A stretch of 64,000 nucleotides of DNA from an uncultured Clostridia bacterium. GTDB lineage: Bacteria; Bacillota; Clostridia; Christensenellales; UBA1242. Made by a program: the position numbers and the translations under genes. Below are positions 13,601 to 64,000 of this stretch, piece by piece. Where the stretch lies: contig CANQDP010000005.1 in assembly GCA_947593585.1 (NCBI GenBank), forward strand, positions 3,477 through 67,476. The letters run 5' to 3'. Numbering within the stretch: position 1 is the stretch's first letter; each line of letters starts with the position of its first letter. The notes beneath the pieces were generated by a model that worked only from the letters and a program-made list of their open reading frames with translations, made no database searches and had not been told where the DNA came from.

Positions 13601-16600
13601 TCCGCCACATCTAAGCCATCGCTGATTTTTGAGCCGTTTCTTTCGCCCATTATTTGATAAACATATTGATTGCTTGCGCCTGCATCGTTGCGGAACGAAA
13701 TTGTGGAAAGCACATTGCTTGTGGTGGAAACTGGTGAGAATGTGAGCACTATGCTGCCCGAACTAGTTGAAATGTTGTTGTTATCACCATGCTCGAAGCT
13801 GATATAGTTTGCATTTGCAATGTCATTGAAGCCCAAATCGCCATAATCTTCAATAATTCTTTCGCCAACTTGCAAAGCCAATCTTCTTGTGTTTGCCACG
13901 CTGTTTTTGCTAACAGCATCGGTCAATCCGGTCAAACTTCCATCTAAATTTGTGAATAGATAGGAATATAAATCGTCAATTTTATAGTTAGATTGCACAT
14001 TTTCGTGCGGAATTCCATTTTTCTCCGCCGCTTTTGTGAGATATAGTGGCACGAGATTATCATAAGAGCGATAAACACGCACATAGAAAGGAATTGTGAT
14101 TGCCGCTCCGCCCTCTTCTGTGAATGTGCTGGCATTTGACTTGATTGTGAAATTGAATTGGACAACCTTTTCAATTGCTGAGTGTGTGAAACCTATGGTT
14201 AAATGCCCATTAGAAATGGTGTTGCTATCCATGGTGGTTACAAACTTTGCATCGCCATCATCTTGAAGAGCAAATTCGAGTGTTGCATTAAATTCTCTTG
14301 GGGTGCGAATGATTAGTTGATTATTAAGTGTGCCGATTGAATAAGTGGTGATTGCGCCATCTTCTGTGCGGTTGAAGGTGATTGTGCTTGCTGTGGTGCT
14401 TGCATAAGAGGTGTCTGTGAAAGTTGCATCAAAAGGCAACTCACTTGCGTGCCCCGGAGCAGAATCTGGGAATGTGCGATCCACAAAACTTTGCACTGAG
14501 ATGTCCACATGACGATAGACAGTGTTGGTGGACGCGATATCTTCAAACACCATATCAAATGATACTGTGTAGAAATATGTTTTGGCTTCAAAATTGATTG
14601 CCAAATTGCCACTCGTGTGCACAAACTCAATAAAACTAACTGTTTGATTTGGTGATGCCTCTTGGGACATTTCGATTGACACATCACTCTGCGAAACCTG
14701 ATTTACTTGCAAGGATGAGATTTTAAGGGTCATGGCATATTTATTGCTGCTTCCATCTAGGTTGCTATATGACAAAAATTCTGTTAAATCAAGTGAGGAA
14801 ACAAAGCCAGAAGTGCCTGAGTAATTGCCCACTGTGCGCCAAATTCTATCGGTTGGGATTGTTATTGCTGGCATTATGAAATGCACAACCAAAACGAAAT
14901 CTGAGCCGGCAAACACATATTCAACTTCAAATTCTAGCGTTGAAGTTACATATTTTTGACGGCTGATTGTGGTGCTTGCTATTGTGATGACTGGATTTTC
15001 TTTATCTTCGCCAAAATAGATGTTTTTGCCTGCTTCGTCAATTGAAAATCCTTGATTTACTTTGACAATTTTCAACTCTGGAAGCGACAGCCCAGTGAAT
15101 GGGTTTGCAAAGGAAGCATCTTTCCACTCCATGAAATATCTGCCGTTTTCAATGCCTTCAAGTTCGTGAGTTAGACTTGAATTGAAACTATAACTCGTGG
15201 TTGGCTGAACATATGCCATAATTGAGCCAACAAACACCTCTGCACTGCCACTCGTGGCGTTATATACAACACCGATTTTGAGTGTGGCAAAATTATTGAG
15301 TGCTGGCAAAGTTGTTTTGTTTAACAAAGAATATCTCTTAATGCCCGTTTGCTCGTAGAAATCTTTGCCGTCTAAAAGGCTAGCTTCAAGCAAATATAAA
15401 TATATGTTTTCATCAGTTGGAGCGATTGTGCCCGGCAAGCAGAATTTGGTTAAATCCAAACTTTCGCCCAACACCTTGCCAGATGAATAGAATTGCAACC
15501 CTGAAGATGATTTTGGATTGATGTTTACAACCGTGTTTGTGTTTAGGGAAGTTAGGTTTCTATCTCTTAAAGTGTTGTATAAACGAACGAAATAATATGC
15601 ATAGTTTGATGAAGTGGTTTCAATTTTGAACGCCAAATATGCGGTTACGAAATCACCCGCTGGGCTAAAGGTGATAACGAATGATTTTTCATCTTTTGAA
15701 ATGGACACCAAATTTGGCATATTGTTGCTCGTGCCGACAAGCACAACATTGGCTATTGCACCCGGCTCGTCTTGCTCTGTGCGGTTTGTGATGATTGTGC
15801 GCTGAGTGGACATGGTGGAATCTAAATCAAACCTTATGGTTTGCCCCATGCTGACAGGCTCATAGTTTGGCAAGCTGATTGCAGAGCCGAAATAGTCTCT
15901 ATCTTGCTCATTTGCGTTGCTTGTGGTGGAGAATCTAACTGTGCCCGTGCCATACTCTTCAAAAGGATATTGCATTTCAATGCTTTGGCAGTTTGTGATG
16001 ATAATGCTGACACCTTCAAACACGAAATAGCTTTCGTCTGTGTAGGTTATGCGGTAATCAACCAAAATTTCTTTTTGCTCGCCATATATGCTACCGATTG
16101 CTATTTGAGCGTCCGCTTCGTTTTTATCTTCAAAAATATATCTAATGCCAACCACACGGCTATCGAGCGCCGGAGTGCCCGTTTCAACCACTTTTTCAAC
16201 AGAGATTGATTTGAAATAATTTTCTTGACCATCTTCTATTGTGAACACATCTTTAATTATGTTGAAACTATAATTTGAATATGCCGGCTGAATGTTTATG
16301 GCTGGTGAGCGAGGTGTGATGGTGATTGACATATCGCTCATGTTTGAGTTGCCCGAACTTATGTAGGTGAGAGATTTGCCACTATATGAGAATGTGAAAG
16401 TAAGCACAACATTTGGTGTTGAGAAAATTTCGTTTATTTGAGTGTCGAGCGTGAACTTTTCGCCCTCCATTGAGAAAGTTAAATCTTGCCCGCCTTCAAT
16501 TCGTCCGCTGACATTGGTTAGTGCCCACTCTTCCTCTTCGCTTACAATGGAAAGTGGTGAATTGTTTTGAGCGCCAACAGGGAAATAGTGGTTGGCTTCA

Positions 16601-32500: not shown

Positions 32501-32595
32501 ACGCAAAGAGCGAGCCTTATCTCAACGCTTTGATAAGAAAACTTTCTAGCGAAAAACCAGAAAATGCAGAAGAACCTGCTAAAGACAAAGATTAG
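29554..32595 (+). CDS. Large surface protein with repeated CBM/galactose-binding-like modules, a C-terminal TM helix and a cytoplasmic coiled-coil tail
   Basis: Start preferred at the second ATG (MKTTSK, GAGG 5 nt upstream); the ORF track starts at 29542. Signal peptide. Recurrent modules (NSHYEISVEV, SGSYHLFSLALF, SANYYKISIDVF). TM helix WWYVAPSIVFAVVIIICVAGVLM, then about 150 aa of charged heptad-like tail. Confidence 0.8.
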   Translation: MKTTSKLTKTMHLLIAFIFFLAGLMLATAVKPKDIKAYASAFQSEEIVTTKLTNNAKFEEGKKDEYPYQPNGFTSSNSNVEKNSGVINLKDEEFIDKYKNHNENETNQYVLMVKANVEEFGYVSSSPSQMTLDANSHYEISVEVGCYDGARATLCLISDDERIISLTHVGDWNKCYLYVSTDETTSLNVNLGLFSKGGTVLFDDISAKKLNDRAMTDALARRETNGDEFAYLDKQNSAALTEFDMLPSNEIFVKNVGESENDLTSYSTTGYLHKASDSEVDDGEHDYAFVINHIKATYNTFYTKDNFITVEKGSLVRVEIPVKALKLSGQVTIKLIRTGSEDYDDEKSINLSGSTSENLLRNGYQNNYFYIKTSHTQEETFKLAVVVGNADNLTSGKVYISTITICPIDETQFSNASSSNKLDLTGETDENYFANGQFNSSKASSKTPYLNTPDSWSVGLADSGEQKYGVVNTNSEVFERMREANSLPSSLTTPGSIDNNENDNVLMMYNISGDKLSYTSETENITSGSYHLFSLALFTNSCNAEISIVNDNATLFSTQVNTNGEWKMVNVFMHNPYLTQDVQIRISLNSDKSLCFVDNVSLDLDAQPTENTFNEAKTGNFTFKFSLSNIFASKDAEDYATPELLVESGDINGDFGIINIESPTLESKVLPKDKDNTSGENIPLNILKSLKGNEKNILGIYATEKTYFSLTSKLGFSLDSANYYKISIDVFTPCTFGENEGASLSITSFSDSFTAINADEGWRTYTFFIHPESNSTSNIVFGLGTSENPSQGRVFFGNLTYKDYGSDQTTFDEEAKAGPYALVLNKLSSSENNNENNEENAEETNSNGINWWYVAPSIVFAVVIIICVAGVLMRKVKWKKPNKKVKNEYDRNKTVNKQYYSRKATAMRDDEVRKLEKELQELTSQRTGYEEEYKVCLNSLRELKIKRASASEIAKVEKEMRKNKKLSSAIGISIQRKEEDIEYAKSEPYLNALIRKLSSEKPENAEEPAKDKD

Positions 32596-44176: not shown

Positions 44177-47100
44177 TTATTCAACATCTCCAGATTTTGC
44201 ATCGGATTCTGCTTCTGGTTCGCTCTCTTTTTCTTTAGCCTTTGTGCTCTTAGTGGTTTTTGCCTTATTAGACTTGCCACTTCCGCCCTTCTTGCCTGTG
44301 AAAGCGAAGAACAAGATTACGCCAGCCAAAATCAAAAGTGAAATAACAATTAACACTGTGCCAACAACAGAATCTGAAACATGCTTCTCTTCTGCCGTTT
44401 TAGAAACAACATTGAAGCTGATTTCACGAATTGTTTCGTTTTTATTGTTGTCTGTTAAAGTGAATTTCAAAGTGAATTTACCTGTGCCTGTGATGAAATA
44501 TTGAGAATCAAGAGTTGTGTCTGTGTTGCGCTCAAGATTTTCAGCGCCTTCCAAGGTTACAGATAAATTATACCAGTTGTTGAATATTTCAGCATCAGTT
44601 TTAGTGCCATCGTTATCATACAACTTCAAGCCTGTGTCGATGCTATCGATTTGCTCGCCATTGCTATAAATGGAGATTACAAGTGTCCTTGTTGAGCCAC
44701 GCTTTAAGTCGATGTTATACTCTATGCGGTTTTCACCATCATAAACTATATCTTGACTTAATCTAGCCACAACGCCTTCGCCAAATCTAATTTCAGGTTT
44801 GATTGAATCGCCAACTTTGATGTCGAATTCCTTCTCAATCTCTTCGTCTGTTACAAGAGATTTCGCCTTGTAGGTTACATGATAAGTGCCAGAAGTTTTG
44901 TGAGATGATGCCACATATTCTGGGCCACCCTCTTTAGGTTCTGAAACTCTTTCGTCAGTGAAGCCATCATTCAATTTGAAATGCCAGAAGGTTACCAATC
45001 TATTGTCAATCTCTTTTGTTTCAAGCTTTGGTGCACCGTGGTCAAGTGGAAGATAGTCTGGGTCGGTAACTTCTAGGGTAACTTCAACATCAAGGTCTGT
45101 GTTGCCATGAGAAGCACTTAAATATTCAAGCCAAACATCTTCGCCAACCTCTTTTTGAGCCTCAACATTAACATCGCCCGACCAAGCAAGTGCTGGAACG
45201 GTGATGCGAATTGTTAATTCTTTTGTGTTTGATGTGCGGGTTTGCATATCTTTGCCTTGATATGTTGATTTGATGGTTACTTTATAGTCGTCTGCAACGG
45301 TGAACTTATAGCCACCAGCATAAGAATCAGGCTCAACACCGGTTTTCACACCAACAATTTCGATTGTTGTGTCTGCCTTAGAAGTGATATCCCCTTCCTC
45401 GTTTTCAACTTTATAATCAAAGCGAACAACAGAATTTATGTCTGCTTCATAAATGCCACCAGAAAGTGTTGCACCCTTCACATTGATAGAAGTTAGTTTA
45501 GGGCTTTGAATGTTTTCAACTGTGAATGTGTAGGTGAAATATGTGGTGTTGCCAGCGGAATCTCTAGCGGTGTAAACAACATAATATGTGCCGGCTTTAG
45601 ATGCAGAGATTTTTGCGTTTGAAATTGTGAAAACGCCGTCTTTCACTGTGGTCTTTTTGCCAACAACTTGCTCAAAATCGCTTGGACGAATGGCTGGGTA
45701 GCCTAATTCGTCTTCAGAGATTGCGTCCAAATCCTCTTGAGAGATAACATAGTATTGCAAAGAGATATTTAGAGTTTTATCAGTTGTGTCCTCAAAAGAT
45801 ACTGTTGGAAGAGCAATATCTTTAGGAGCGCCGTCTGTGATATAGAATGTTTTGTTATTATTAGTGATGTCATCTTCGCCTTCAACTGCTGTAACTTTAG
45901 CGGTTGGAGCATCTTTTTCAGAAGTGTTATCCACGCTAAGAGTTTTGAAATCTATTGCAACAGTGTTGTTGTCATTAATTGCAACTGCAACTAAGTGAAC
46001 AAACTTTTCATCATCAGCCTTTTCAAATGCAACTTCAAATTCGCCATTTGAAACTTCTTTCATTCTTGTGATGTTGTTGTATTTGCTTAGAGCGGAAACA
46101 AGATTGTCATTATACAAAACATTAGTTTTGAAATTGTCGAAATAATTTGTGGAGTAATCTGGAGTGGTTTCATCTCCTTCCAAAGAGCCACCATGCTCTT
46201 TATTTACATTGCCCCAAGAAGCATCTTTTTCTTGCAACAACAATTTAGCAATTTCGGCTTTGATGTCTTTTTCAAAAGCCTCGGCTGTTACTGTGGCAGC
46301 ATCGCCAGACTCTGTGAACAAGAACAAAGCATTGCGAACATTTGCATCAACATCATCTTTTGAAACAACTGTGGTGTTGAATGAAGATTTTTCAGCGATT
46401 GTGTCCTCATTCAAAGAAAGGCTAACAGTTAAGTTTTTGCTAACGCCTTCTGTTTCATCGCCAGCAACATTGCCAGCCAATGCGCGCTCTAACACTTTGA
46501 ACTTATATGCCCTTGTGCCAGATTCATAAAGGGTTTTTCTTTGAGTGATAATATAGTTTCTGCCTGTGGTTTTGTTGAACACTTGATAAACAAGGGAATA
46601 ATCTTTGCCTGTGTAGTAGCCAAGTTTGAAACCACTATAATTAGTGTTAAATTTGAAACGAACAACTTTGTTCATTTTGCCGATGTTAGGGTCGTTTGAA
46701 GCATTATAGCCTTCTTCCGTGTCTTTAACGGCAACAACGCCCGTTTCATCATCGTTTAATTTGATGTTATCAATATAGAACTTATCTAGCGAGTTTGTGT
46801 TGCTTTGGAAATAACGAATGAACACATATTCATCATAATCGTAGATGCCCTCAGCGAAAATTGCTGGGAAGCGAAGCTCTGCATAGCCATAGTATGGAGC
46901 GAACTCGTAGATATAATCTTTATTCACATTTTCGCTATCAACAACAACTTCTTTTGCAACATCTTCACCTTTTTTAAGCACCGGCAAGCCTTCGCTATCC
47001 TTCTCCCAAGAAACGGTTTCAGGCAAATCATAGGTGTATGCCCAAGAAACATCAAGAGAATTTGAAGGCAAGGTTACGCCCGTAACATTAAATGTGGCAG

Positions 47101-48241
47101 ATGCAGTTAAACCATAATAACTCTCGATATAATAGGTGATTTTATAGTCATCTGTTAAATCTTTATAACTCTTTGCATTTTCAAAATTTGATAGGAGCAA
47201 ATCGAAAGTGCGTTGGTTATCTTCCAAAACCAATTTGATGTTTGAATTTTCTCTTTTGGTGATTTCAATCTTTTTGATGGTGTAGTCAACATTAGTGCTC
47301 TTGTTTGTGTTGGCAGTAACGTTAGGGAGCTCTATGCCCTTCTGCCCTAATGCCATTGCTGGCATTGCAAGATTTTTATCTATTGTTAACTCTGTTGGTG
47401 CATCAAAATCGCTCATGACATTGATTGAAAATTCATCATTAGCGTTGTTTTCGCCACCAAGATATTCATATTTCACTCTATATGTGGCGCTATACTTGCC
47501 ATTTAGGTTGGCAGTAAGCACGCACTTTTTGTCTTCAAGTGAAACCTCAGGATTGTCATTTTCCTCTGCTGTTGGGTCGTAGATTTTTGCGCCATTTTTA
47601 TAGATTGTTGGAGCAACGGTTACATACTCTTCTTCCACGCCCGAAGTGAGATAATCGTCTGTGCCGGCGATTTGAACATAAGCATTTGGCAAAGTGATTT
47701 TTGCACCATCACCAGCTTGCGATGGAACTAAATCTTTTGCGCCATTTGGAGCAACGAATGTGAGTGTGTATTTAACGCTCTTAACATACACAGACACTGG
47801 GCTAGAGAAATAATATTTGCCACTCTCCTCATAGCCATACATAACCTTATAATAGCCGCTATTTAAAGACTTAATACGAATTGATTGGTTGCTTTCTTCG
47901 TATTCAAAATATTCTGTGGTGGATTTATCCGACTTGATTTCACAATCGTGAATTACACCGCTGCCGTCTATAACACGGATGATATAGTCAGTTGGCACTT
48001 TTGAGCCGGTGAGAAGCGGAATTGATAAATTATCGTCCGTTTTATCCTCATTGGATAAATCTATAACTGAATTTTCCTTTAATAATTGAATTGCGTTGAA
48101 ATCCACTGAAACGGGCGTTGGCTCGCCAGCGACTGCAACATTTGAGGATATGGCAAAAGGATTAATTGCGAAAACAAAAGCCATAACCAAAAAAGCAAGA
48201 ACTAGAACAATTTGCTTTATGTGTGATTTGAATTTAGTCAT
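44177..48241 (-). CDS. Large (1354 aa) type-I-topology surface protein with Ig-like (DUF5011/HYR-like) modules
   Basis: Signal peptide. Segments such as GTYYVVYTARDSAGNTTYFTYTFTV and SGTYHVTYKAKS are typical of bacterial Ig-like folds. C-terminal TM helix VVGTVLIVISLLILAGVILFFAF plus a Lys-rich tail. No LPXTG. Confidence 0.85.
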   Translation of the reverse strand: MTKFKSHIKQIVLVLAFLVMAFVFAINPFAISSNVAVAGEPTPVSVDFNAIQLLKENSVIDLSNEDKTDDNLSIPLLTGSKVPTDYIIRVIDGSGVIHDCEIKSDKSTTEYFEYEESNQSIRIKSLNSGYYKVMYGYEESGKYYFSSPVSVYVKSVKYTLTFVAPNGAKDLVPSQAGDGAKITLPNAYVQIAGTDDYLTSGVEEEYVTVAPTIYKNGAKIYDPTAEENDNPEVSLEDKKCVLTANLNGKYSATYRVKYEYLGGENNANDEFSINVMSDFDAPTELTIDKNLAMPAMALGQKGIELPNVTANTNKSTNVDYTIKKIEITKRENSNIKLVLEDNQRTFDLLLSNFENAKSYKDLTDDYKITYYIESYYGLTASATFNVTGVTLPSNSLDVSWAYTYDLPETVSWEKDSEGLPVLKKGEDVAKEVVVDSENVNKDYIYEFAPYYGYAELRFPAIFAEGIYDYDEYVFIRYFQSNTNSLDKFYIDNIKLNDDETGVVAVKDTEEGYNASNDPNIGKMNKVVRFKFNTNYSGFKLGYYTGKDYSLVYQVFNKTTGRNYIITQRKTLYESGTRAYKFKVLERALAGNVAGDETEGVSKNLTVSLSLNEDTIAEKSSFNTTVVSKDDVDANVRNALFLFTESGDAATVTAEAFEKDIKAEIAKLLLQEKDASWGNVNKEHGGSLEGDETTPDYSTNYFDNFKTNVLYNDNLVSALSKYNNITRMKEVSNGEFEVAFEKADDEKFVHLVAVAINDNNTVAIDFKTLSVDNTSEKDAPTAKVTAVEGEDDITNNNKTFYITDGAPKDIALPTVSFEDTTDKTLNISLQYYVISQEDLDAISEDELGYPAIRPSDFEQVVGKKTTVKDGVFTISNAKISASKAGTYYVVYTARDSAGNTTYFTYTFTVENIQSPKLTSINVKGATLSGGIYEADINSVVRFDYKVENEEGDITSKADTTIEIVGVKTGVEPDSYAGGYKFTVADDYKVTIKSTYQGKDMQTRTSNTKELTIRITVPALAWSGDVNVEAQKEVGEDVWLEYLSASHGNTDLDVEVTLEVTDPDYLPLDHGAPKLETKEIDNRLVTFWHFKLNDGFTDERVSEPKEGGPEYVASSHKTSGTYHVTYKAKSLVTDEEIEKEFDIKVGDSIKPEIRFGEGVVARLSQDIVYDGENRIEYNIDLKRGSTRTLVISIYSNGEQIDSIDTGLKLYDNDGTKTDAEIFNNWYNLSVTLEGAENLERNTDTTLDSQYFITGTGKFTLKFTLTDNNKNETIREISFNVVSKTAEEKHVSDSVVGTVLIVISLLILAGVILFFAFTGKKGGSGKSNKAKTTKSTKAKEKESEPEAESDAKSGDVE

Positions 48242-49375: not shown

Positions 49376-50887
49376 TTACGCCTTGATGAGAAGAACAAAA
49401 GTGTCTATTTTATCTATGTATAAATTGCTAAACTGGTTCATTTCATATTCGTGCACAACTGAATAATATTTTGAAATTAGCGCTTCATTTTTTATGTAAT
49501 CACCCTTCTCACAGAGCAAGAAATCTGCCGATTGCTTTTCCACTTCCTTATCAAAACTTGCAAACATTTCAGGGAAAGCATCTTCTTTAAACACATTTTG
49601 AGCAAAGAACCTTGCGTTTGGCGTGATTTTGCAAGCGTTATAAAAGCCATAATCATACATCTTATAGCAAAATAGGGTTGGATTTTCAATGCCGTTTTGC
49701 TTAGAATAATTAGATATGTCGTCCGCCACAACTAGTTGAATATAATCGCTCTTCTCATTTTTTATTGCGCGGGTGGATGGGCAAAGGAAATAGCAATAGC
49801 CCAAGCCAACAACTAAGCATAGCATCGCGCTAACAACTTTGAAGAAAGCGTTATATTTGATGTGGCAAAACTGTTTGAAAATCATGATAAGACCAAGGCT
49901 TGCAAACGGATAAAGCACAACGAAATAGTATATATGGCAATTTTGAAGCATTAATATGCCAAGATTTATAAACAAAACTAAGAAATATAGCCATGCTTTT
50001 TTGCCCGTTTCTTTGAAATATAAAAACATTCCAACAAACATTATAGAGCAGCAAACATAATCATAAGCAAACAATTTAAACACATTGACCAGCACGCCCA
50101 TATATTTGCTATTATAGGCAAAAAGGTTTATGTAGAAATATGCCCAAAACATATCTTTTAGAGCATGATTGATTATATAATATAAAACGCTTAGAAAGGT
50201 GATGATGGCAAAGCCTAAAATCATAAATCCGATTGAAGCAAACATCTTTTTGAAATCTTTATTTTTGATGCTTATTATCAGCCAAATTAGAAGCATTGCC
50301 ACCAAGCCGACAATGGCGGTGAATTTCACCCAAAAAATTGCCGCCACGCTTGCCCCAATGAGCATGGAGCGAAGAGGTGAAAACTGCTTTTTTTCTTCAA
50401 TAAACTCAATGAAGCAAAGCAAAACATACATAATTAGTGGCAGAAAAAATTCTTCCACTGCCCCGCCACCAGCAAGATTATATGGTGAAGAGACGGCAAC
50501 GAACAAAATGGTGATTGCGCAAATCACGCTTGCAAAAGGCGAAACATATCTGCGCGCTAGTTTGAAAGTGAGATAGGCAAACACGCCCAAGCAAACCACT
50601 TCAAACAAAAGCACCATAATATAAGGATTTTTAAACAAGCAAAAGAAGGAAAACACCACATATAGCAACGGACCTTTTTGCTCAAACAAATCTCGATAAG
50701 GGGCTTTGCCATTTACTATGCCCCGCCCGACTGTGATATACCAATTCACATCTGTGTTTGTGTTGAATTTATATAAAAACGAGTTTTGGCTGCAAACTGT
50801 TAAAAAGCCAAACGCCACCAACAAAAAAAATAAGATTAAAGCAACGGTTTTCAAACCATTTAAAATCGGACTTTTTTTGCTTTCCAT
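49376..50887 (-). CDS. GT-C fold glycosyltransferase (PMT/ArnT-like, GT39/GT83-type)
   Basis: About 12 TM helices. First-loop motif GKAPYRDLFEQKGPLLY is typical of ArnT/PMT_2 enzymes. Soluble C-terminal domain. Start uncertain (TTG 50923 or ATG 50887). Confidence 0.65.
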   Translation of the reverse strand: MESKKSPILNGLKTVALILFFLLVAFGFLTVCSQNSFLYKFNTNTDVNWYITVGRGIVNGKAPYRDLFEQKGPLLYVVFSFFCLFKNPYIMVLLFEVVCLGVFAYLTFKLARRYVSPFASVICAITILFVAVSSPYNLAGGGAVEEFFLPLIMYVLLCFIEFIEEKKQFSPLRSMLIGASVAAIFWVKFTAIVGLVAMLLIWLIISIKNKDFKKMFASIGFMILGFAIITFLSVLYYIINHALKDMFWAYFYINLFAYNSKYMGVLVNVFKLFAYDYVCCSIMFVGMFLYFKETGKKAWLYFLVLFINLGILMLQNCHIYYFVVLYPFASLGLIMIFKQFCHIKYNAFFKVVSAMLCLVVGLGYCYFLCPSTRAIKNEKSDYIQLVVADDISNYSKQNGIENPTLFCYKMYDYGFYNACKITPNARFFAQNVFKEDAFPEMFASFDKEVEKQSADFLLCEKGDYIKNEALISKYYSVVHEYEMNQFSNLYIDKIDTFVLLIKA

Positions 50888-50963
50888 GCAAACAATATAA
50901 CACTTTGTTTGGATATTTGTCAAATAAGTGGAAATAAAAAAGCTCCCAAATTGGGAGCTAAGA

Positions 50964-55264: not shown

Positions 55265-58200
55265 CTATTCGTCCAAATCGTCAAACAAATCGCTATCGTC
55301 AAACGCTGTTTGATTAACATCGTTTTCATAAGCGGACTGCAAATCGTCAAATTCGAGAGTTACATCTTCAAGCACAGGCTTATTAACTGCCTCGATTGGC
55401 CTAATTTCTTCACCCTCTTCACCAACTTCGTTGATTGTGAGCTCGTGATTATCTGCCGTTAAAATCTTGACATCTAGGCACAAGCCTTGCATTTCTTTAA
55501 CGAGCACTTTGAACGATTCTGGCATGCCAGGCTCTGGGATTGGCTCACCTTTAACGATTGCTTCATACGTTTTGATACGCCCTTCCACATCGTCCGACTT
55601 AATTGTGAGCATTTCTTGCAACAATCTTGATGCACCATACGCTTCAAGTGCCCACACTTCCATTTCGCCGAAACGCTGACCGCCGAGTTGGTTTCTTCCG
55701 CCGAGTGGCTGCTGAGTGATAAGCGCATAAGTGCCTATACCACGCGCGTGGATTTTATCTTCAACCATGTGGTCTAGTTTCAACATATACATGGTGCCCA
55801 CAGTGGTTTTGTTTTCAAATGGCAAACCTGTGCGGCCATCATATAATTGCATTTTGCCGTCTTCTGGCAAGTTGTTTGATTTAAGCAGTTGCCTAATTTC
55901 TTCTTCGCTAGCACCATCGAATGCTGGGCTTTCAACCTTCCAATCTAAGTGCTTTGCTGCCCAACCTAAGTGCATTTCCATCAACTGACCTAAGTTCATA
56001 CGAGATGGAATGCCTAGTGGGTTAAGCACAATGTCTACCGTTTCGCCATTTGGCATATAAGGCATATCGCACTCTGGCAAAACAACCGATATAACGCCTT
56101 TATTACCATAACGGCCGGCAAGTTTATCGCCCACTTGAAGCACACGCTTTTGAGCGATATACACTTTAACCATCATATTAACGCCGGCATCAAGTTCGTC
56201 CTTATTCTTTCTAGATAAGATTTCAATGCCAACAACCACACCTTCCTGACCGTGCTGAACTTTTAGGCTGGTGTTTTTAACTTCTTTTGTTTTTTCACCA
56301 AATATGGCCTTCAACAATCTCTCTTCTGGGGTCAAATCTGTTTCGCCCTTAGGGGTAACCTTGCCCACCAATATGTCGCCAACTTTGACCTCTGTGCCTA
56401 TGCGAACAATACCGTCCTCATCAAGGTTTTTAAGAGCTTCTTCGCTAACGCCTGCAATATCGCGAGTGATTTCTTCATCGCCAAGTTTGGTCGTCCTTGC
56501 TTCTGTTTTAACTTGCTGGATGCTGATTGATGTGAATGCGTCATCTCGCACAATTCTTTCGTTAACTAGGATAGCGTCCTCGAAATTGTAACCTTCCCAA
56601 TTCATGAAAGCAACCGTCATATTTTTGCCTAGTGCAAGTTCGCCATTCTCTGTTGAGCCACCATCAACCAAAACCGTGCCTTTCTTGACTTTTTCGCCCT
56701 TTTTGACGATTGGCTTTTGATTGAAGCAAGCTTTTTCGTTTGTGCGCTCAAATTTGCGCAACTTGTGGTTCACAACGCTGCCATCAGCATATTCCATAGT
56801 GATATAGTCTGCTGAAACATATTTGCACACACCATCTTGCTCTGCCAAGATTAATGCGCCAGAATCAACTGCAATTTTATTTTCAATGCCTGTGCCCACG
56901 ATTGGAGCTTCTGCCCTGATTAGTGGAACTGATTGGCATTGCATGTTTGCACCCATTAGGGCACGGTTTGCTGCGCAGTGCTCAACGAAAGGAATAAGCC
57001 CTGCACCAACCGACAACAACTGCCTTGGGCTCAAATCAACAAGGTCTATCATCTGAGAATCAACATGCTCAGTTTGACCATTGTGGCGGCAATCAACATA
57101 TCCGTCTAAAATCACTTTGTCCTTTTGAGGGATGGTTGCCTGAGCAATATAGTGCCCACGCTCCTCATCTGCCATTAAGAACACGATATCGTCTGTAACT
57201 TTCCTAGTTTTAGGGTCAACTTTTCTATAAGGAGTTTCAATAAATCCATATCTATTAATGCGCGCATAAGAAGCCACCGAAGTCATCAAACCGATTTGCT
57301 GACCTTCTGGCGTTTCAACCACGCAAATTCTGCCATAGTGTGAAGGGTTGATATCACGCACTTCAACAGTGGCACGCTCACGCCTTACACCGCCCGGACC
57401 GGCAGATGACAACCTACGCTTATGCCTTAAGCTTGCTGCTGGGTTAATTTGGTCCATTAATTGGCTTAATTGGCTGGTTGCCATAAATTCTTTAAATGCT
57501 TTGTTTATTTGCCTTGCGTTTACGATTTGGCTAGGAGTAACCTCAGACAAATCGCGGCTTTGCATCGTTTCGCGCACTTGGGCTTGAAGTTTGTTCATAC
57601 CACGCCTAAACTCATCGCGAAGCAATTCTCCACTCGTTGCCACACGGCGCATTGAAAGGTTATCAATTTCATCAGTTTCGCCCAAACCATCAATTAAATT
57701 TAGGTGATAGCCGATTGTTGCCATAATATCATCTAGAGTGATTTGGAAATCTTCCAACTTCCTTGCGTTTTCTTTGATAGCGGCTTTTAAAGATTTTTCA
57801 TCCTTGCTATCCTTCATGATTTGCTGCAAAAGTGGCAGATAAACCAACTCGGTTATGCCAAACTCTTCTGGGTCTAATTTTGTGTAGGTTTTAAAATCTA
57901 CGCGCTTATTGCCAACCACGCGAACAACTTTGTCGTTAACCAAAACTTCCACTTCGTTTATGCCGGCATTTTGAATTGCCCAAGCCTTTTCAAAACTGAT
58001 AACTTCGCCCGCATGAGCAAAAATCTTTTTGCCCTGCTTTATGTCGTTTGCTGCCACTTGGTCAACAATTCTATTCGCAACGGACAATTTTTTATTAACC
58101 TTAAATCTGCCCACTTTTTCAAAATTGTAGTGCTGAGGGTTAAAGAAACGGTCATTAATATAAGCCAAAGTGTTGTCCGGATTAGGGATTTCGCCCGGCC

Positions 58201-58933
58201 TGGTTTTCCTGCCGAACTCAATCAATGCGTCCTCTTGCGTGTTTTGAGGCTCTTTTTCAAGAGTGTTCACCAAGAAAGGATGGCGCCCGAAAATTTCATA
58301 CATGTCCTCATTTGTGTAGCCAAAGCATTTTGGCAAAATGCCCAAACTCATTTTGAACCTGCGGTCCACATTCATTCTTAGGCAATCGCCGCTAACTTGC
58401 TCGGTTTGCACCCACATGCCATAACTTGGTTGGATAGAGCCAGAATAGTCCATTCTGCCATATTTGTTCATCTCTCCCTCGAAGATGACTCCTGGCGCTT
58501 TAATCATCTGGTTGAGCACAACCCTTTCAACGCCGTTGCAAATAAAGCCTCCGTCCTTAGACATGAACGGAATATCGCCCATAAACACTTCTTGGTCCAT
58601 AATCTGACCGGTTTCTTTCACAAGCAAGCGGACATTGACCTTTAATGGCACAGTGTAGCTAGTTTGCTTTAGTTTGCACTCCGACCATGAGTATTTGGGG
58701 GTTTTGTCTATAGAATAACTCAAAAAAGACAACTCAGCCTTGTTTGAGTAGTCAACAATAGGGTTAAATTCACTCAATATCTCCCCAATGCCCTCATCAA
58801 TAAAATTATTGTAAGAATCCTTTTGAATGTTTAAAAGGTCTGGCATTGTGTATGGCACTTCAATTTTAGCAAAACTCATTCTTTCAGCACGGCCGCGTTT
58901 TACCTTTTTAATGTTGAGTGTGTTTGAATTCAT
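55265..58933 (-). CDS. rpoB: DNA-directed RNA polymerase subunit beta
   Basis: 1222 aa with conserved RpoB blocks (GRHGNKGV-type GRYGNKGVIS, RFGEMEVWALEAYGA). Confidence 0.97.
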   Translation of the reverse strand: MNSNTLNIKKVKRGRAERMSFAKIEVPYTMPDLLNIQKDSYNNFIDEGIGEILSEFNPIVDYSNKAELSFLSYSIDKTPKYSWSECKLKQTSYTVPLKVNVRLLVKETGQIMDQEVFMGDIPFMSKDGGFICNGVERVVLNQMIKAPGVIFEGEMNKYGRMDYSGSIQPSYGMWVQTEQVSGDCLRMNVDRRFKMSLGILPKCFGYTNEDMYEIFGRHPFLVNTLEKEPQNTQEDALIEFGRKTRPGEIPNPDNTLAYINDRFFNPQHYNFEKVGRFKVNKKLSVANRIVDQVAANDIKQGKKIFAHAGEVISFEKAWAIQNAGINEVEVLVNDKVVRVVGNKRVDFKTYTKLDPEEFGITELVYLPLLQQIMKDSKDEKSLKAAIKENARKLEDFQITLDDIMATIGYHLNLIDGLGETDEIDNLSMRRVATSGELLRDEFRRGMNKLQAQVRETMQSRDLSEVTPSQIVNARQINKAFKEFMATSQLSQLMDQINPAASLRHKRRLSSAGPGGVRRERATVEVRDINPSHYGRICVVETPEGQQIGLMTSVASYARINRYGFIETPYRKVDPKTRKVTDDIVFLMADEERGHYIAQATIPQKDKVILDGYVDCRHNGQTEHVDSQMIDLVDLSPRQLLSVGAGLIPFVEHCAANRALMGANMQCQSVPLIRAEAPIVGTGIENKIAVDSGALILAEQDGVCKYVSADYITMEYADGSVVNHKLRKFERTNEKACFNQKPIVKKGEKVKKGTVLVDGGSTENGELALGKNMTVAFMNWEGYNFEDAILVNERIVRDDAFTSISIQQVKTEARTTKLGDEEITRDIAGVSEEALKNLDEDGIVRIGTEVKVGDILVGKVTPKGETDLTPEERLLKAIFGEKTKEVKNTSLKVQHGQEGVVVGIEILSRKNKDELDAGVNMMVKVYIAQKRVLQVGDKLAGRYGNKGVISVVLPECDMPYMPNGETVDIVLNPLGIPSRMNLGQLMEMHLGWAAKHLDWKVESPAFDGASEEEIRQLLKSNNLPEDGKMQLYDGRTGLPFENKTTVGTMYMLKLDHMVEDKIHARGIGTYALITQQPLGGRNQLGGQRFGEMEVWALEAYGASRLLQEMLTIKSDDVEGRIKTYEAIVKGEPIPEPGMPESFKVLVKEMQGLCLDVKILTADNHELTINEVGEEGEEIRPIEAVNKPVLEDVTLEFDDLQSAYENDVNQTAFDDSDLFDDLDE

Positions 58934-59021
58934 TCATTAACTCCTTATTCAGTTGTTATCCACCTAGGTATATACAATTTATTGTATATCTCTTAAATGG
59001 GACAATTTATCATACTAGCCT

Positions 59022-59050
59022 AGTGTAGCATGATTTTCAACTAATGTCAA
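59022..59050 (-). promoter_or_regulatory. Promoter of rpoB-rpoC
   Basis: TTGACA-TTAGTTGAAAATCATGC-TACACT (17-nt spacer, extended TG). An overlapping alternative is TTGAAA-17-TAGTAT. Confidence 0.5.
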
Positions 59051-59149
59051 TAGATTTTTCAAACTTTTTCAAGAAATTTTTAAAAATCGTGTCAAAACAG
59101 TTGACTTTTAAAAAATTTTAACTGATTTTTCAAAATTTGTGGAAAACGG

Positions 59150-59180
59150 CAAAAGAAAAATCCAGCACAGGGCTGGATTA
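59150..59180 (-). terminator. Intrinsic terminator after the LRR protein gene
   Basis: AATCCAGC-CCTGT-GCTGGATT followed by TTTCTTTT. Confidence 0.7.
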
Positions 59181-59182
59181 AT

Positions 59183-62100
59183 CTATTTATTTTTTGTGAA
59201 AATATAATATTCACTTGCATCATCTTCAGATTGTGTGAAGTTATTTTTTAAATAGTCTGGCATTGGGTTAGCCTCAGCGTCATCAACTATAGATTTAAGC
59301 ACTTTAACCGCTTCTCCAGAGCCAATATAATGTAATAGCCCCCCGCAAACTTTAAGGTCGTAATAGTCAGTTAACATCTTATATACCGCCGGGCTCTTCA
59401 CAGTTACGCTAGATAAATTTTCCAATTCGGAGAATGCATATTCCCCAACAGAGTTTACACTTGAGCCAATCACGATACTGGTTACATTTTTGCTTGGGTA
59501 AAATAGTTGATGAGTATAATTTTCGTAACCACATAGAAAATATTTTGGAATAGTTTTTACATTATCCCCTATTATCAACTCTATCCCTTCTTCCGCTGAG
59601 CCAGAGTTATAACATAACCCATAAATATTATAACCATCACTTACTGTTAATTCAGAAATGTTTTCAGCATTATATATTAATTTTTTTAATGTTCTGCAAT
59701 AACTAAACACTCCACCAGCAAGTGATTTTACACTGCTAGGAATAGTTACTTCTGTCAAAGGCGTACTGTCAAAAATATTATATCCAATTGTTTCAACTTG
59801 ATTTAGATCTATTGATGTCAATTTTAGACAGTAACCAAAAGCAGCACGCTCTAGGTTTTTCACAGCGTCTTGCAAAACCACACTTTTAAGTTCTGAGCAC
59901 TGATAAAAAGCCGAATCTCCAATGGTTTCAGCGCCAACGATTAAACTAGTTATTTTTGTTGTGCTAAAAGCTCTCTCTCCAACCACGGTTACGCTCTGAG
60001 GGATAATTAACTCACCATTTATAGTTGTAGCCATGAATGAATAATATCCTATGGATTTGACACCATTTGGGATAATTAATTCACCCGTTAGTCCTCTACA
60101 ATAACAAAATGAATATTGTTTTATTACAGTTGTGTCCTGCTCAAGCGTAATTGTGAAATTTCTATCTCTATCTCCAACAGGGCCTACTGCCACTTTTTCA
60201 TTATTATATTTATAATAGGTTACGCCATTTATGTCTTCAAATTCTCCTTTTTGAGATTCGTCAGTAATTATTCTATGTGCATAATATCCTATCATATTTC
60301 CATTTGAGGTGGATGAACTAAATTTAATTTGTATAGATGAAGACTTATTTATAACTTCAGTTAGTTTATAACAACCACTAAAAGCATAATTACCTATTTT
60401 AGAAACATTTTCACCTATTGTTAGGCGTATAATATTATCACAATCATTAAAAGCATGGTTTTTTATTGCTGTTGTATCTTGCTCTAGCGTAAGTTCAGTA
60501 AATTGATTTTTATCCCCTGCCGAATCTACTGCCACTTTTTCATTATTATATTTATAATAGGTTACGCCATTTATGTCTTCGAAAGTGCCTTTTTGAGATT
60601 CTTCTGTTATTACTCTGTGTGCAAAATATCCTATATATCCATTTGAGGAGGATGATCCGTCTAACGAAATATTAAGAGATGAAGACTTATTTATAACTTC
60701 TGTTAGTTTAAGACATTGATTAAAAGCATCACCTCCTATTTTAGAGACATTTTCACCTATTGTTACGCGTATAATATTATCACAACCATAAAAAGCATAT
60801 GTTTTTATTGCTGTTGTGTCTTGCTCAAATGAAACTATGTCAATTGAGTTTCTATCCCCAGAGGGACCTACTGCAACTGTGTCAGTATCATATTTATAAT
60901 AGGTTACGCCATTTATGTCTTCGAAAGTGCCTTTTTGAGATTCGTCTGTTATTATTCTATGTGCATATTGTCCTATATATCCATTTGAGGTGTATGGACC
61001 AAGCTGAATTTGTATAGATGAAGATTTATTTACAACTTCTGTCAGTCTATAACAATCATCAAAAGCACTAGAACCAATTTTAGAGACATTTTCACCTATT
61101 GTTACGCGAATAAGACTATCACAACCATAAAAAGCATAATTACCAATGCTGGTTATTCCATCACTTATAACTAATTCTGTAATATTCTTGCAATTATAAA
61201 ACGCTCCACCTGAAGAATAATTTGAAGAATCTGGGATAACAACATTATGCTCGCCGTTCTCGCCGTCATTATATGTGGCGGGGATGACTATTTTGCCTGA
61301 GATATTTTTGTTTGCTGCCTTCACTTCATAATGGTCGGTTACGAATGTGTACACAAGAGGCTGTGCAACTTCTTCGTTATATGAAATTGTTAGGTCGCCC
61401 GTAACTTTATAGCTAGTATCTGCTTGCTCGTTTGCGCCCGTTACGGTGATTGTTTGTGTGTAGCCTTCTTTTTGCTCTCTTGGTTGGATTGTTAGAATTT
61501 CGTCATAATAAACCTTATCCCCTTGATTGAGTTCGGTTTCTCCACGCTTAACCAACACTTGCTCATCAATCTCTTTAATTTCAAATTCTTTTGGAGTTTC
61601 TTCTAGGCTGATTGACACATTGCCTGTTACTGTGTAGGTGTGCTCATCTGCACTAAGCAATTCAAGCCCGGTTAGCGATAGAGATTGGTTATATCCTTCT
61701 TTTTCAACATAGGTGATTGTGAGCACATCGCCCTCACGCACTTTCGAGCCTGTTTCTAATGGCTCACCAGAGTGCATAACGGTTACGCCCGGCTGAATTG
61801 TAACAGAATAGAAATTTGGAACGCCTGTGATTGAAATGGTGATGTTTTGACGGACATGAGGGACTGTGTAAACCCCAAAAGCATCTGCCTCCAACACCTC
61901 GCCATTGGCTTTAACTTGGAATGTCTCTGCCAATTCTTCCACTAAGTGATCGTATTGCACTTTAAATGAGAAGGCTGAGTTCCACTCCACAGCCTGCTCA
62001 TCTTGCTCACTTGAAATTGTGAAATATTCACTCGTTGGGATTGAAATGCTAAACTGCTTGATTTTTAGCTTTAAGTATATAGTTGCTCCCTTTTCAACAG

Positions 62101-62449
62101 TGTCGGAATCCTTATATTGCTGTGTGCAGGCAGCATCTTTATATATACCCAATAGGTCATAGCCTTCAATTGATTTAATTTGAGATTTAATATTTTTAAT
62201 CTGAGCGCCTTTGCCAACAGTTAATTTGTATGAAGAAAAATTTTCAAGCGGTGAATCGACCACAATTTGGTAGCTGCCATGATTGTTTTGATAAATTGCC
62301 ACGCCCACAGGAACTGCCACCATTAAACCTGCCAGCACGGCAGTGGTGGTGATTACGGCTGCATTTCTGCGCCTACGCTTGCTTTGTTCCTTTTTAACAG
62401 ACTCGTTTATTTTTTGAGATTGTGTGTCCACTGGTTTTTTCTCTTTCAT
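59183..62449 (-). CDS. BspA-type leucine-rich-repeat surface protein (1088 aa) with an N-terminal signal-anchor and Listeria/Bacteroides-repeat-like modules
   Basis: N-terminal basic segment plus TM helix AAVITTTAVLAGLMVAVPVGVAIY. Flg_new-like unit (GYDLLGIYKDAACTQQY). Many LRR_5-type units (IGNYAFYGCDSLIRVTIGENVSKIGSSAF). Three 114-aa repeats. Confidence 0.85.
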   Translation of the reverse strand: MKEKKPVDTQSQKINESVKKEQSKRRRRNAAVITTTAVLAGLMVAVPVGVAIYQNNHGSYQIVVDSPLENFSSYKLTVGKGAQIKNIKSQIKSIEGYDLLGIYKDAACTQQYKDSDTVEKGATIYLKLKIKQFSISIPTSEYFTISSEQDEQAVEWNSAFSFKVQYDHLVEELAETFQVKANGEVLEADAFGVYTVPHVRQNITISITGVPNFYSVTIQPGVTVMHSGEPLETGSKVREGDVLTITYVEKEGYNQSLSLTGLELLSADEHTYTVTGNVSISLEETPKEFEIKEIDEQVLVKRGETELNQGDKVYYDEILTIQPREQKEGYTQTITVTGANEQADTSYKVTGDLTISYNEEVAQPLVYTFVTDHYEVKAANKNISGKIVIPATYNDGENGEHNVVIPDSSNYSSGGAFYNCKNITELVISDGITSIGNYAFYGCDSLIRVTIGENVSKIGSSAFDDCYRLTEVVNKSSSIQIQLGPYTSNGYIGQYAHRIITDESQKGTFEDINGVTYYKYDTDTVAVGPSGDRNSIDIVSFEQDTTAIKTYAFYGCDNIIRVTIGENVSKIGGDAFNQCLKLTEVINKSSSLNISLDGSSSSNGYIGYFAHRVITEESQKGTFEDINGVTYYKYNNEKVAVDSAGDKNQFTELTLEQDTTAIKNHAFNDCDNIIRLTIGENVSKIGNYAFSGCYKLTEVINKSSSIQIKFSSSTSNGNMIGYYAHRIITDESQKGEFEDINGVTYYKYNNEKVAVGPVGDRDRNFTITLEQDTTVIKQYSFCYCRGLTGELIIPNGVKSIGYYSFMATTINGELIIPQSVTVVGERAFSTTKITSLIVGAETIGDSAFYQCSELKSVVLQDAVKNLERAAFGYCLKLTSIDLNQVETIGYNIFDSTPLTEVTIPSSVKSLAGGVFSYCRTLKKLIYNAENISELTVSDGYNIYGLCYNSGSAEEGIELIIGDNVKTIPKYFLCGYENYTHQLFYPSKNVTSIVIGSSVNSVGEYAFSELENLSSVTVKSPAVYKMLTDYYDLKVCGGLLHYIGSGEAVKVLKSIVDDAEANPMPDYLKNNFTQSEDDASEYYIFTKNK
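60100..61140 (-). repeat. Three tandem 342-bp (114-aa) repeats inside the LRR gene
   Basis: The marker GGTTACGCCATTTATGTCTTC recurs at 60218, 60560 and 60902, exactly 342 bp apart. Copies 2 and 3 share identical runs of more than 50 nt. Confidence 0.85.
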
Positions 62450-62504
62450 TTATCCCCCTCTTTAGTGTGCCCCTAAAATTGAAATTTAGGCATATTCACT
62501 AATT

Positions 62505-62535
62505 ATTTTACTCGCACCCCCCCCCCCTAAGTCAA
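62505..62535 (-). promoter_or_regulatory. Promoter of the LRR surface protein gene with G11 in the spacer (candidate phase-variable)
   Basis: Minus strand reads TTGACT-TA-GGGGGGGGGGG-TGCGAG-TAAAAT. Spacer is 19 nt at the current tract length. ATG lies 55 nt downstream with an AGAGGGGGA RBS. Confidence 0.6.
62517..62527 (-). repeat. Homopolymeric tract, C11 on the plus strand and G11 on the coding strand
   Basis: Counted directly: 4 C at 62517-62520 plus 7 C at 62521-62527. The longest other G/C runs I saw are 5-6 nt. Confidence 0.95.
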
Positions 62536-62602
62536 GTAAAAATAGGAAAATTTGGAAAATTTTTGAAAAATAAATGCCTGGCGGATAATTTGCGCAGATT
62601 TG

Positions 62603-62684
62603 GGGGCGCACGGTTGCCCGCGCGAGCGGGCAACAAAAAAGGCACGATGTGCCTTTTTAAAAGTTGAAAACTTTTGTGCGCCCC
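62603..62684. other. GC-rich 82-nt element able to fold as a four-way junction (closing stem plus three hairpins)
   Basis: GGGGCGCAC (62603-11) pairs with GTGCGCCCC (62676-84). Inside are TTGCCCGC-GCGA-GCGGGCAA, AAAAAGGCAC-GAT-GTGCCTTTTT and AAAAGTT-GAA-AACTTTT. Confidence 0.5.
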
Positions 62685-62688
62685 TCCT

Positions 62689-62716
62689 TAAAAAAGAGAG
62701 GCGTCATAGCCTCCCT
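62689..62716 (-). terminator. Intrinsic terminator after the Cys-rich gene
   Basis: GGGAGGC-TATGAC-GCCTCTC followed by TTTTTT. Confidence 0.7.
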
Positions 62717-62744
62717 TTTGATTTAACCTCTTAAACCCGGTTAA

Positions 62745-62957
62745 TTAGCAACCGCAACCGGTGTTGCCTTGATTGCCACCATTGCAGCCACAGAGTAATA
62801 ATAAGATTATGATTAAGAAGCAAGGGTCTTTGCAACCACAATTGCATAACAATAAGATTAAGATAACAAGTGTGCAGATGTCGCAGCCGCTTGATTGACA
62901 GCCACAATTTGAGCCACAGCCGCAATCTCCACCATTATTAAAGAATTTGTTAAACAT
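62745..62957 (-). CDS. Cysteine-rich (14 Cys in 70 aa) small hydrophobic protein
   Basis: MFNKFFNNGGDCGCGSNCGCQSSGCDICTLVILILLLCNCGCKDPCFLIIILLLLCGCNGGNQGNTGCGC. Strong RBS CAGGAGGAAAA and its own terminator. Resembles small high-cysteine proteins of spore-forming Firmicutes. Confidence 0.65.
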   Translation of the reverse strand: MFNKFFNNGGDCGCGSNCGCQSSGCDICTLVILILLLCNCGCKDPCFLIIILLLLCGCNGGNQGNTGCGC

Positions 62958-63046
62958 TTTTCCTCCTGAGTGTTTTATGTAACTTACAAAGTTTTTTTCT
63001 TTGGTACCTTAAAATTTCCTTTGTACAATACATACTACGCAGAAAT

Positions 63047-63079
63047 AAAAAAAGTGTTACGGTCAAACTGCCGTAACAC
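63047..63079 (-). terminator. Intrinsic terminator after the 142-aa gene
   Basis: GTGTTACGG-CAGTTTGA-CCGTAACAC followed by TTTTTTT. Confidence 0.75.
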
Positions 63080-63090
63080 TGCAAATTCGC

Positions 63091-63519
63091 TTAACCTTCT
63101 TTAAGCTGAGAGAAGAAGGCATCATGCTCAATTAGATTGCTCCTTTCAAGCGAACTAAGGTGAATTAATTGAATTTTCCTAGCTGTGTCATAAACAGAAT
63201 TGTTTAGTGCCTCCACAATGTCCTCACCAAATGAGCGCCTATACTGCAACGCAATTTTGATATACTTGCGATTAGCAACAGGATTTTCTCTCAACGCAAA
63301 AAGCAACTCATAATCATCTTTCATGCGGTATTTTTTCACATATCTTTGCAATATATAGAGCGTTTTTACCACTTTTGGCGAATAAACTTTATAAGTTTCA
63401 AACACTAAATCATAGCCCGAACTTGGCAAATAATCTCGCTCGGCATGTTTTTCCTTGAAATTTACCATATATGTTTTGATATCCTTACGCCTTATCACTT
63501 CTTTAATTAGATTTCTCAT
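63091..63519 (-). CDS. Hypothetical basic protein (142 aa)
   Basis: RBS TAGGAGAAAAA, own promoter and a strong terminator. No motif recognised. Confidence 0.6.
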   Translation of the reverse strand: MRNLIKEVIRRKDIKTYMVNFKEKHAERDYLPSSGYDLVFETYKVYSPKVVKTLYILQRYVKKYRMKDDYELLFALRENPVANRKYIKIALQYRRSFGEDIVEALNNSVYDTARKIQLIHLSSLERSNLIEHDAFFSQLKEG

Positions 63520-63540
63520 TTTTTCTCCTATCAGCCCTTA

Positions 63541-63569
63541 TTATCTCACAGAATTATAAATTTGTCAAT
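63541..63569 (-). promoter_or_regulatory. Promoter of the 142-aa gene
   Basis: TTGACA-AATTTATAATTCTGTGA-GATAAT (17-nt spacer, extended TG). Confidence 0.5.
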
Positions 63570-63576
63570 ATTGATT

Positions 63577-64000
63577 TTATGAAAACGAGGCAAGTTTTTC
63601 TCTTATCATTTGTTTTAATTGCACGATGTTTTTCTGCGTTTTTGCCCCTATATAGCAAGTATAATAAGGATAAGACCTAAAATTTTTGATTTCATCTGCA
63701 CTCACCTTATCAATTTTGTTATATACCAAAATAACTTTGTTTGGGTCGATAGACATACGCTTAAACTCGTTTTCCACCACTGCAATTTGCTCGTATTTAT
63801 GCGGGTCGCTAGCATCAACCACCATAAGAAGCACATTGGCGTCAAGCGTTTCTTCTAGCGTGGCTGAGAAAGCATACATCAACTCGTGAGGCAAATTTCG
63901 CACGAAGCCGACCGTGTCGATAAGCACATATTCCACGCCATCGTCCCACACCTTTTTGGAGAGCACGTCAAGAGTGGCAAACAGCCTATCGTCCGCATAA
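63577..64000 (-). CDS. hflX: GTPase HflX, C-terminal part (gene continues beyond the window end)
   Basis: The frame stays open to position 64000 (..YADDRLFATLDVLSKK..). LFATLD and DTVGFV G-domain motifs. The track start at 63966 is only an internal GTG. Confidence 0.8.
   Translation of the reverse strand, partial: YADDRLFATLDVLSKKVWDDGVEYVLIDTVGFVRNLPHELMYAFSATLEETLDANVLLMVVDASDPHKYEQIAVVENEFKRMSIDPNKVILVYNKIDKVSADEIKNFRSYPYYTCYIGAKTQKNIVQLKQMIREKLASFS

Follow-up and report, generated by a model that had tools for sequence, protein, structure and literature searches.

The promoters most closely comparable to the one analysed here are those in which a run of G residues separates the −35 and −10 elements. 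In porA of Neisseria meningitidis and tp0126 of Treponema pallidum, poly-G occupies exactly this position and expression is best when the spacer measures 17 nt, and the porA precedent named in the original prediction for this DNA is thus confirmed (PMC7864442). The locus described here lies in a stretch of 64 kb, referred to below as the window, and it resembles porA in that a G run of about 9–11 nt occupies a sigma-70-type promoter spacer ahead of a gene for a surface protein (a probable one in the window); in porA, changes in run length alter the spacing and hence the level of transcription, which amounts to volume control (PMC7864442). Unlike the window gene, porA encodes a porin of a Gram-negative pathogen and its switching has been shown experimentally; moreover, a G11 run in porA yields the optimal 17-nt spacer, whereas G11 in the window yields 19 nt.

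Poly-G promoters of T. pallidum are found not only at tp0126 but also at tprL and at tprE/G/J, all of which encode putative outer-membrane proteins, and tract lengths of 7–11 coexist in vivo (PMC7864442). T. pallidum is a spirochaete pathogen in which heterogeneity was followed by fragment-length analysis and reporter assays, as opposed to the comparison of assemblies used here. With respect to the protein concerned, the nearest case is Candidatus Mycoplasma girerdii, in which BspA-like surface proteins were inferred from metagenomes to be targets of repeat phase variation (PMC5476646). That system shares with the window both BspA-type leucine-rich repeat (LRR) proteins, in the window a probable surface protein, and an uncultured, host-associated bacterium. 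It differs in that the repeats are mostly frame-shifting dinucleotides that cause translational on/off switching, with variants quantified from reads, whereas the window has a homopolymer in a promoter.

Two further systems, poly-C of Bordetella fim and poly-A of Mycoplasma hyorhinis vlp, also use a homopolymer to set the spacing of promoter elements of surface protein genes; in fim, the tract lies between the −10 box and an activator site, so that switching is BvgA-dependent. Both differ from the window in base and organism. More generally, most known cases of switching by repeats come from pathogens (Neisseria, Haemophilus, Campylobacter, Helicobacter, Treponema and the mycoplasmas), and the phase variation known in gut commensals mostly involves invertible promoters of Bacteroidota. 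Our literature search found no paper on phase variation by homopolymeric tracts in Christensenellales, nor on the poly-G type in Firmicutes. The mechanism considered below is of a known kind; what is new is the lineage, gut Christensenellales near Candidatus Onthoplasma, and the gene.

Results

The predicted window promoter carries a G11 tract in a 19-nt spacer

The window derives from a rabbit-gut Christensenellales metagenome-assembled genome (MAG) near Ca. Onthoplasma. Its rpoB protein is 100% identical to that of the rabbit-gut MAG "uncultured Clostridia bacterium Lapin-021__bin12", and the next relatives are other "Lapin" MAGs (88–93%), followed by Candidatus Onthoplasma and Christensenellales MAGs at approximately 80–85%.

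The minus strand between 62505 and 62535 reads TTGACT TA GGGGGGGGGGG TGCGAG TAAAAT, where GGGGGGGGGGG is an uninterrupted run of 11 G residues, and the −35 and −10 hexamers are consequently 19 nt apart (Table 1). The distance from the −10 box to the ATG of the LRR gene is 55 nt. With 10 of 12 consensus matches, TTGACT-19-TAAAAT is the sole pair in the 296-nt intergenic region that reaches at least 9/12; no alternative promoter of that quality was found there when spacers of 14–21 nt were scanned. The original prediction had described this −35/−10 pair, its 19-nt spacer, the position of the ATG and the ribosome-binding site (RBS), all of which we located on the minus strand. It had also singled out the tract as the only long G/C homopolymer of the window, and G11 is indeed the only run of at least 7, the runner-up being a single C6. 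From base composition (38.7% GC), approximately 0.0016 runs of at least 11 would be expected in the window.

The spacers of other promoters had been described as shorter. Consensus matches at the genes for rpoB (TTGACA-17-TACACT), the 142-aa ORF (TTGACA-17-GATAAT), the 3338-aa protein (TTGACT-17-TATAAT) and the 1354-aa protein (TTGACA-17-TACAAT) all have spacers of 17 nt; these are promoters recognised by sequence rather than mapped start sites. The start of the window −35 box, TTGACTTA, is shared by the promoter match of the 3338-aa protein, in which the spacer is 17 nt. Because the good promoter matches elsewhere in the genome have 17-nt spacers, a spacer of 19 nt is an outlier for this organism. 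Every factual statement about the sequence in the original prediction was correct.

An invertible promoter was also considered and rejected, as no convincing inverted repeats flank 62500–62540; the pairings found were the terminator hairpin and short, A/T-rich matches of the kind that arise by chance. A search of positions 59000–64000 against Rfam gave no credible match to a structured RNA in the leader or the intergenic region.

Table 1. Positions of features in the window and of G tracts and related features in other contigs (spacer lengths in nt)
Feature	Locus	Position	Strand	Details
−10 hexamer TAAAAT	window	62505..62510	−	5/6 consensus matches; 19 nt after −35 box
G11 homopolymer (C11 on + strand)	window	62517..62527	−	candidate hypermutable element; TTGACT-TA-G11-TGCGAG-TAAAAT; spacer 19; LRR protein
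−35 hexamer TTGACT	window	62530..62535	−	5/6 consensus matches
A/T-rich stretch upstream of −35 box	window	62536..62580	−	putatively UP-element-like, by sequence inspection alone
RBS AGAGGGGGA	window	62453..62461	−	3 nt before ATG at 62449
1088-aa BspA-type LRR protein ORF	window	59183..62449	−	Pfam LRR_5
Tandem repeat in LRR gene	window	60183-61138		2.8 x 342 bp
Terminator-like hairpin and T run after LRR gene	window	59159..59179	−
Terminator hairpin AAAAAGGCAC-ATC-GTGCCTTTTT	window	62636..62658	−	predicted to insulate promoter from upstream genes
Second upstream terminator	window	62698-62713
rpoB	window	55265..58933		own promoter
rpoB promoter match	window	59050-59022
Slot between Cys-rich small ORF and rpoB	window	59183-62745
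Slot between Cys-rich small ORF and rpoB	L100	2382-10927
Slot between Cys-rich small ORF and rpoB	L051	3998-5247
70-aa ORF	window	62745-62957	−	Cys and Gly rich
Glycosyltransferase gene, 515 aa	window	49376..50923		intact
3338-aa ORF	window	10636-20652	−
1354-aa ORF	window	44177-48241	−
1017-aa ORF	window	29542-32595	+
T9 run	window	29493-29501	+
G9 tract	L026	2554-2562		TTGACA-ttga-G9-tga-TATTAT; spacer 16; multi-pass membrane protein
G10 tract	L040	13507-13516		TTGAC-G10-taatgc-TATGAT; spacer 15 or 20; secreted DUF6273 protein
G9 tract	L072	14480-14488		TTGACA-aaatttgtc-G9-TATCAT; spacer 18; lipoprotein, lipobox LTAC
G11 tract	L051 (Lapin-018__bin38; rpoB 93%)	13784-13794		inside PMT_2 (ArnT-like) glycosyltransferase gene
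ORFs on either side of the L051 tract	L051	13100..13891; 13851..14639
G9, L072-type family	L072, L092
G10, L072-type family	L088, L089, L090, L091, L094
G11, L072-type family	L096, L101
G12, L072-type family	L102
Contigs starting near tract, L072-type family	L087, L092, L093, L095, L097, L098, L099, L103, L104
Same-strain contig, sample ERZ27249252	L001			begins within tract: GGG-TGCGAG...
Same-strain contig, sample ERZ27249467	L002			ends 11 nt beyond tract; G11 with post-homopolymer miscalls
Same-strain contig, sample ERZ27249462 (2.7x)	L003	1900-1930		spans tract, with G12; 29 bp missing (window 62557..62529), −35 box included

The downstream gene encodes a species-specific LRR protein

The identification of the 1088-aa product as a BspA-type LRR protein was upheld by Pfam, in which LRR_5 (PF13306) matches six stretches of the protein with E = 1.8e-73 and 244.9 bits against a cut-off of 27.7. 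In the N-terminus, KRRRRNAAVITTTAVLAGLMVAVPVGVAIY, a basic stretch precedes a hydrophobic segment at residues ~29–53; as judged by eye, this arrangement resembles a signal anchor, and the protein is probably exposed at the surface. The C-terminus was inspected for LPXTG or another anchor, and none was found. Within the gene, a tandem DNA repeat whose units are 82% identical encodes LRR modules of about 114 aa, and recombination between the units could permit size variation of the protein.

As judged from the arrangement of signals around it, the LRR gene is monocistronic: a terminator-like hairpin follows it, and two terminators lie upstream of the G11 promoter, which makes read-through from upstream genes unlikely. 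Those upstream genes are the 70-aa Cys-rich ORF, the 142-aa ORF and a gene for an HflX-like GTPase.

No close homologue of the LRR protein was found among 5.8 billion proteins, the next best being 29% identical. Since the gene is present in one species only and has no orthologue, its promoter has no counterpart in other species with which to compare it. The slot that it occupies, between the small Cys-rich ORF and rpoB, is variable. In one sister species (L100; rpoB 91%), the slot contains an unrelated-looking LRR_5 gene of 2546 aa (29% identity), and in another (L051) it contains no large gene. The promoter of the 2546-aa gene is an ordinary one, TTGACA-17-TATATT, with no G tract. This tract-free promoter, belonging to an LRR gene at the equivalent position, counts against the reading of the window tract as a switch.

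Long G tracts recur in promoter spacers of the lineage

G/C runs were counted by length in 1.11 Mb of sequence, made up of the window and 79 related loci without redundancy. Runs of 3, 4, 5 and 6 numbered 6634, 795, 102 and 6, respectively; there were none of 7 or 8, followed by two of 9, one of 10 and two of 11. The decay of approximately 8- to 17-fold per added base predicts about 0.01 runs of at least 9, as compared with the five observed. In all five, it is the sense strand of the affected gene that carries the G residues. Four of the five have TTGAC 0–9 nt before their first G and a −10 box after their last, and they lie upstream of genes for membrane or secreted proteins (Table 1). Long G tracts are thus a distinct, non-random class in this lineage, and one that recurs in promoter spacers.

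Campylobacter offers a parallel, in that its genome is also low in GC and its G/C runs of at least 8 form a distinct hypermutable class, with the intermediate lengths missing from the background. The poly-G/C phasome genes of Campylobacter, an organism that lacks MutS/MutL mismatch repair, specify surface structures and glycosyltransferases. Most of its tracts are intragenic, as opposed to the four out of five that lie in promoter spacers in the lineage sampled here.

The fifth tract is the coding one. In L051, a G11 run splits a glycosyltransferase gene into two ORFs, and removal of one G in silico (G10) restores a single ORF of 512 aa, residues 10–507 of which align with an intact homologue in the window (515 aa, 40% identity). 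From this reconstruction, the L051 tract looks like a coding contingency tract in the off phase, which annotation would report as a pseudogene.

Tract length varies at a related lipoprotein promoter

We compared the promoter of the L072 lipoprotein gene with those of other members of the protein cluster and of more distant homologues. The promoter sits between rpoC and rpsL (L072, L087–L099, L101–L104), and the tract is kept down to 51% protein identity, in another genomic context and with diverged flanks, as in L089 (TTGACA-ttttgttac-G10-TATTAT). The original prediction had proposed a comparison of tract length among related genomes. At this lipoprotein promoter, the comparison revealed lengths from G9 to G12 (Table 1); at the window locus, it yielded only a G11/G12 difference between assemblies of low coverage, which is described below. 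Contigs that encode identical lipoproteins differ in tract length: the three with protein P0124 have 10, 10 and 9 G residues, and the two with P0126 have 11 and 12.

Of the 18 contigs of the family, nine begin close to the tract, at points between 4 nt ahead of it and about 45 nt beyond it. Such contig starts fit either heterogeneity of the tract within a sample or a collapse of read quality at the run.

A 19-nt spacer is present in 7 of 11 contigs of the family, five of which combine a 9-nt left part with G10 and two an 8-nt left part with G11. More generally, where the left part of the spacer is 8 nt the tract is G11 or G12, and where it is 9 nt the tract is G9 or G10. The 19-nt spacing in this family appears to be preserved by compensating changes; because the compensating change was perhaps a single ancestral event, it carries little weight as evidence. 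Across all G-tract promoters with a readable spacer, 19 nt is again the commonest spacing (8/13), and the canonical 17 nt was found in none of those observed.

Tract length at the window locus

Contigs of the same strain from other samples were retrieved by exact protein sequence and were 99.9–100% identical to the window; look-ups with the rpoB protein and with the 70-aa ORF beside the tract returned no contigs. A scan of JGI metagenome contigs with the flank of the window tract and with that of the L072-type tract gave no match. Differences in length at the window locus come from assemblies with 2.7–4x coverage.

One contig begins within the tract (L001), one ends shortly beyond it (L002) and one spans it (L003). 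An apparent G13 in L002 was rejected as a length variant, since an ungapped alignment reveals a G11 run with T>G and A>G miscalls just behind it. Because these miscalls fall at the tract in a low-coverage Illumina assembly, differences of one nucleotide at the window locus are weak evidence. L003 has G12, and it has in addition a 29-bp deletion, bounded by 2 nt of microhomology, that removes TTGACT; a comparison of G11 with G12 is therefore not a clean one. The deletion may represent either a locked-off variant or a chimeric read. Taken together, the contigs mark the locus as troublesome for sequencing and assembly, with a single G11/G12 difference that comes from low-quality data.

Discussion

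We propose that G11 is a simple-sequence contingency tract in the −35/−10 spacer of a sigma-A-type promoter that drives a surface LRR gene. By slipped-strand mispairing at replication, the run would gain or lose G residues, and each change in length would move TTGACT and TAAAAT relative to each other, in distance as well as in helical phase. The altered spacing would, in turn, change the initiation of transcription by RNA polymerase. The outcome would be heritable and reversible cell-to-cell differences in the amount of LRR protein, whether switched on and off or adjusted by degrees as in volume control. A slippage-prone poly-G switch that tunes transcription of the LRR gene from within the spacer is the best explanation of the sequence features, and we consider it a reasonably likely one. 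We infer both that the tract at the window locus slips at a useful rate and that transcription starts from the TTGACT/TAAAAT promoter. The slipped-strand switch put forward in the original prediction is thus partly supported, by the anatomy of the promoter, the outlier status of the tract, its recurrence in the lineage, the variability of a related promoter and, more weakly, the differences and breaks at the tract among same-strain assemblies, but it is not proven.

The canonical expectation, which the original prediction followed, would be that the G11 promoter is weak or off and that a G9 promoter, with its 17-nt spacer, is on. Because 19 nt is the commonest state of the G-tract promoters, the phase of the window promoter cannot be assigned on this basis. 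Either most of the gut population expresses the gene at a low level, or the optimal length is not the usual one when the spacer contains poly(dG).

The lack of a 17-nt state, together with the mode at 19 nt, could also mean that the role of the tract is a fixed structural one rather than one of switching. According to this hypothesis, a rigid, A-like poly(dG).poly(dC) helix or a bound protein sets promoter strength at the 19-bp geometry, and noise in tract length is incidental. A preferred geometry of this kind would account for the 19-nt spacer in the window and in 7 of the 11 lipoprotein contigs, for the 8-nt left part that goes with G11/G12 and the 9-nt left part that goes with G9/G10, and for the conservation of the tract over 51% protein divergence. 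The compensating changes, however, may amount to one ancestral event, spacings of 18 and 20 nt occur among contigs with identical proteins, and two of the promoters, L026 (16 nt) and L040 (15 or 20 nt), fall outside the 19-nt geometry altogether. Runs of 9–12 G are, moreover, intrinsically prone to slippage, and the frameshifting G11 in the L051 coding sequence points to tracts of this kind working as mutational switches in the lineage. We regard a purely structural or regulatory spacer as rather unlikely.

Another scenario is that the tract arose by accident, perhaps as a by-product when the LRR gene was inserted, and is selectively neutral, any effect on expression being of no consequence to the cell. 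In favour of such an origin, the gene is confined to one species and occupies a variable slot upstream of rpoB; neutral tracts would, on the other hand, be expected to shrink or to be interrupted, and to show no consistent placement, but in 1.11 Mb from which runs of 7 and 8 are absent there are five of 9–11, four of them at the same promoter position. An accident of this kind is, in our judgement, quite improbable. Least credible of all, to the point of being very nearly dismissed, is an artefact of sequencing or assembly, whether two-colour Illumina poly-G or a chimeric join: contigs do break at the tract and L002 has its T>G and A>G miscalls immediately after it, but the window and L003 have the same unique sequence adjoining the tract at either end, L001 and L002, which come from different samples, each show one of its sides, dark-cycle poly-G at the 3′ ends of reads would give G...C joins and not a clean internal G run, and comparable promoter tracts are present in MAGs from different studies and assemblers.

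If the tract does act as a switch, then an LRR protein peculiar to one species, and possibly an adhesin, varies from cell to cell in this uncultured gut Firmicute; relatives of the bacterium would vary lipoproteins, secreted proteins and a glycosyltransferase likewise, and the system would bear on the pressure that immunity (IgA) or phages exert on commensals. A broader hypothesis is that Christensenellales near Ca. Onthoplasma possess a promoter-biased poly-G contingency system at envelope genes, with a preferred 19-bp spacer kept by compensating changes. We offer this as a tentative extension, one that may well prove too broad. Were it true, it would constitute the first repeat-based phase-variable gene set in a widespread gut order, together with a variant rule of promoter spacing. 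There are also practical consequences, in that such tracts break metagenome assemblies right at the regulatory sites of interest, and annotation of MAGs will report off-phase genes, like that of L051, as "pseudogenes".

Other features of the window

The longest A/T run in the window, T9, overlaps a possible TTGCTT-17-TATAAT promoter approximately 40 nt upstream of the 1017-aa ORF; runs of A or T of this length number 16 in the 1.11 Mb, so that T9 is no outlier in the lineage. Three large ORFs of the window, of 3338, 1354 and 1017 aa, have N-terminal hydrophobic segments that resemble signal sequences, and a Pfam search found no domains in them. The 3338- and 1354-aa ORFs are preceded by canonical promoters with 17-nt spacers. 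The 70-aa Cys- and Gly-rich ORF upstream of the LRR gene, which has no Pfam match, contains two hydrophobic stretches, CGCGSNCGCQSSGCDIC and LLLCGCNGGNQGNTGCGC, and its DNA is conserved upstream of rpoB in approximately 40 related MAGs.
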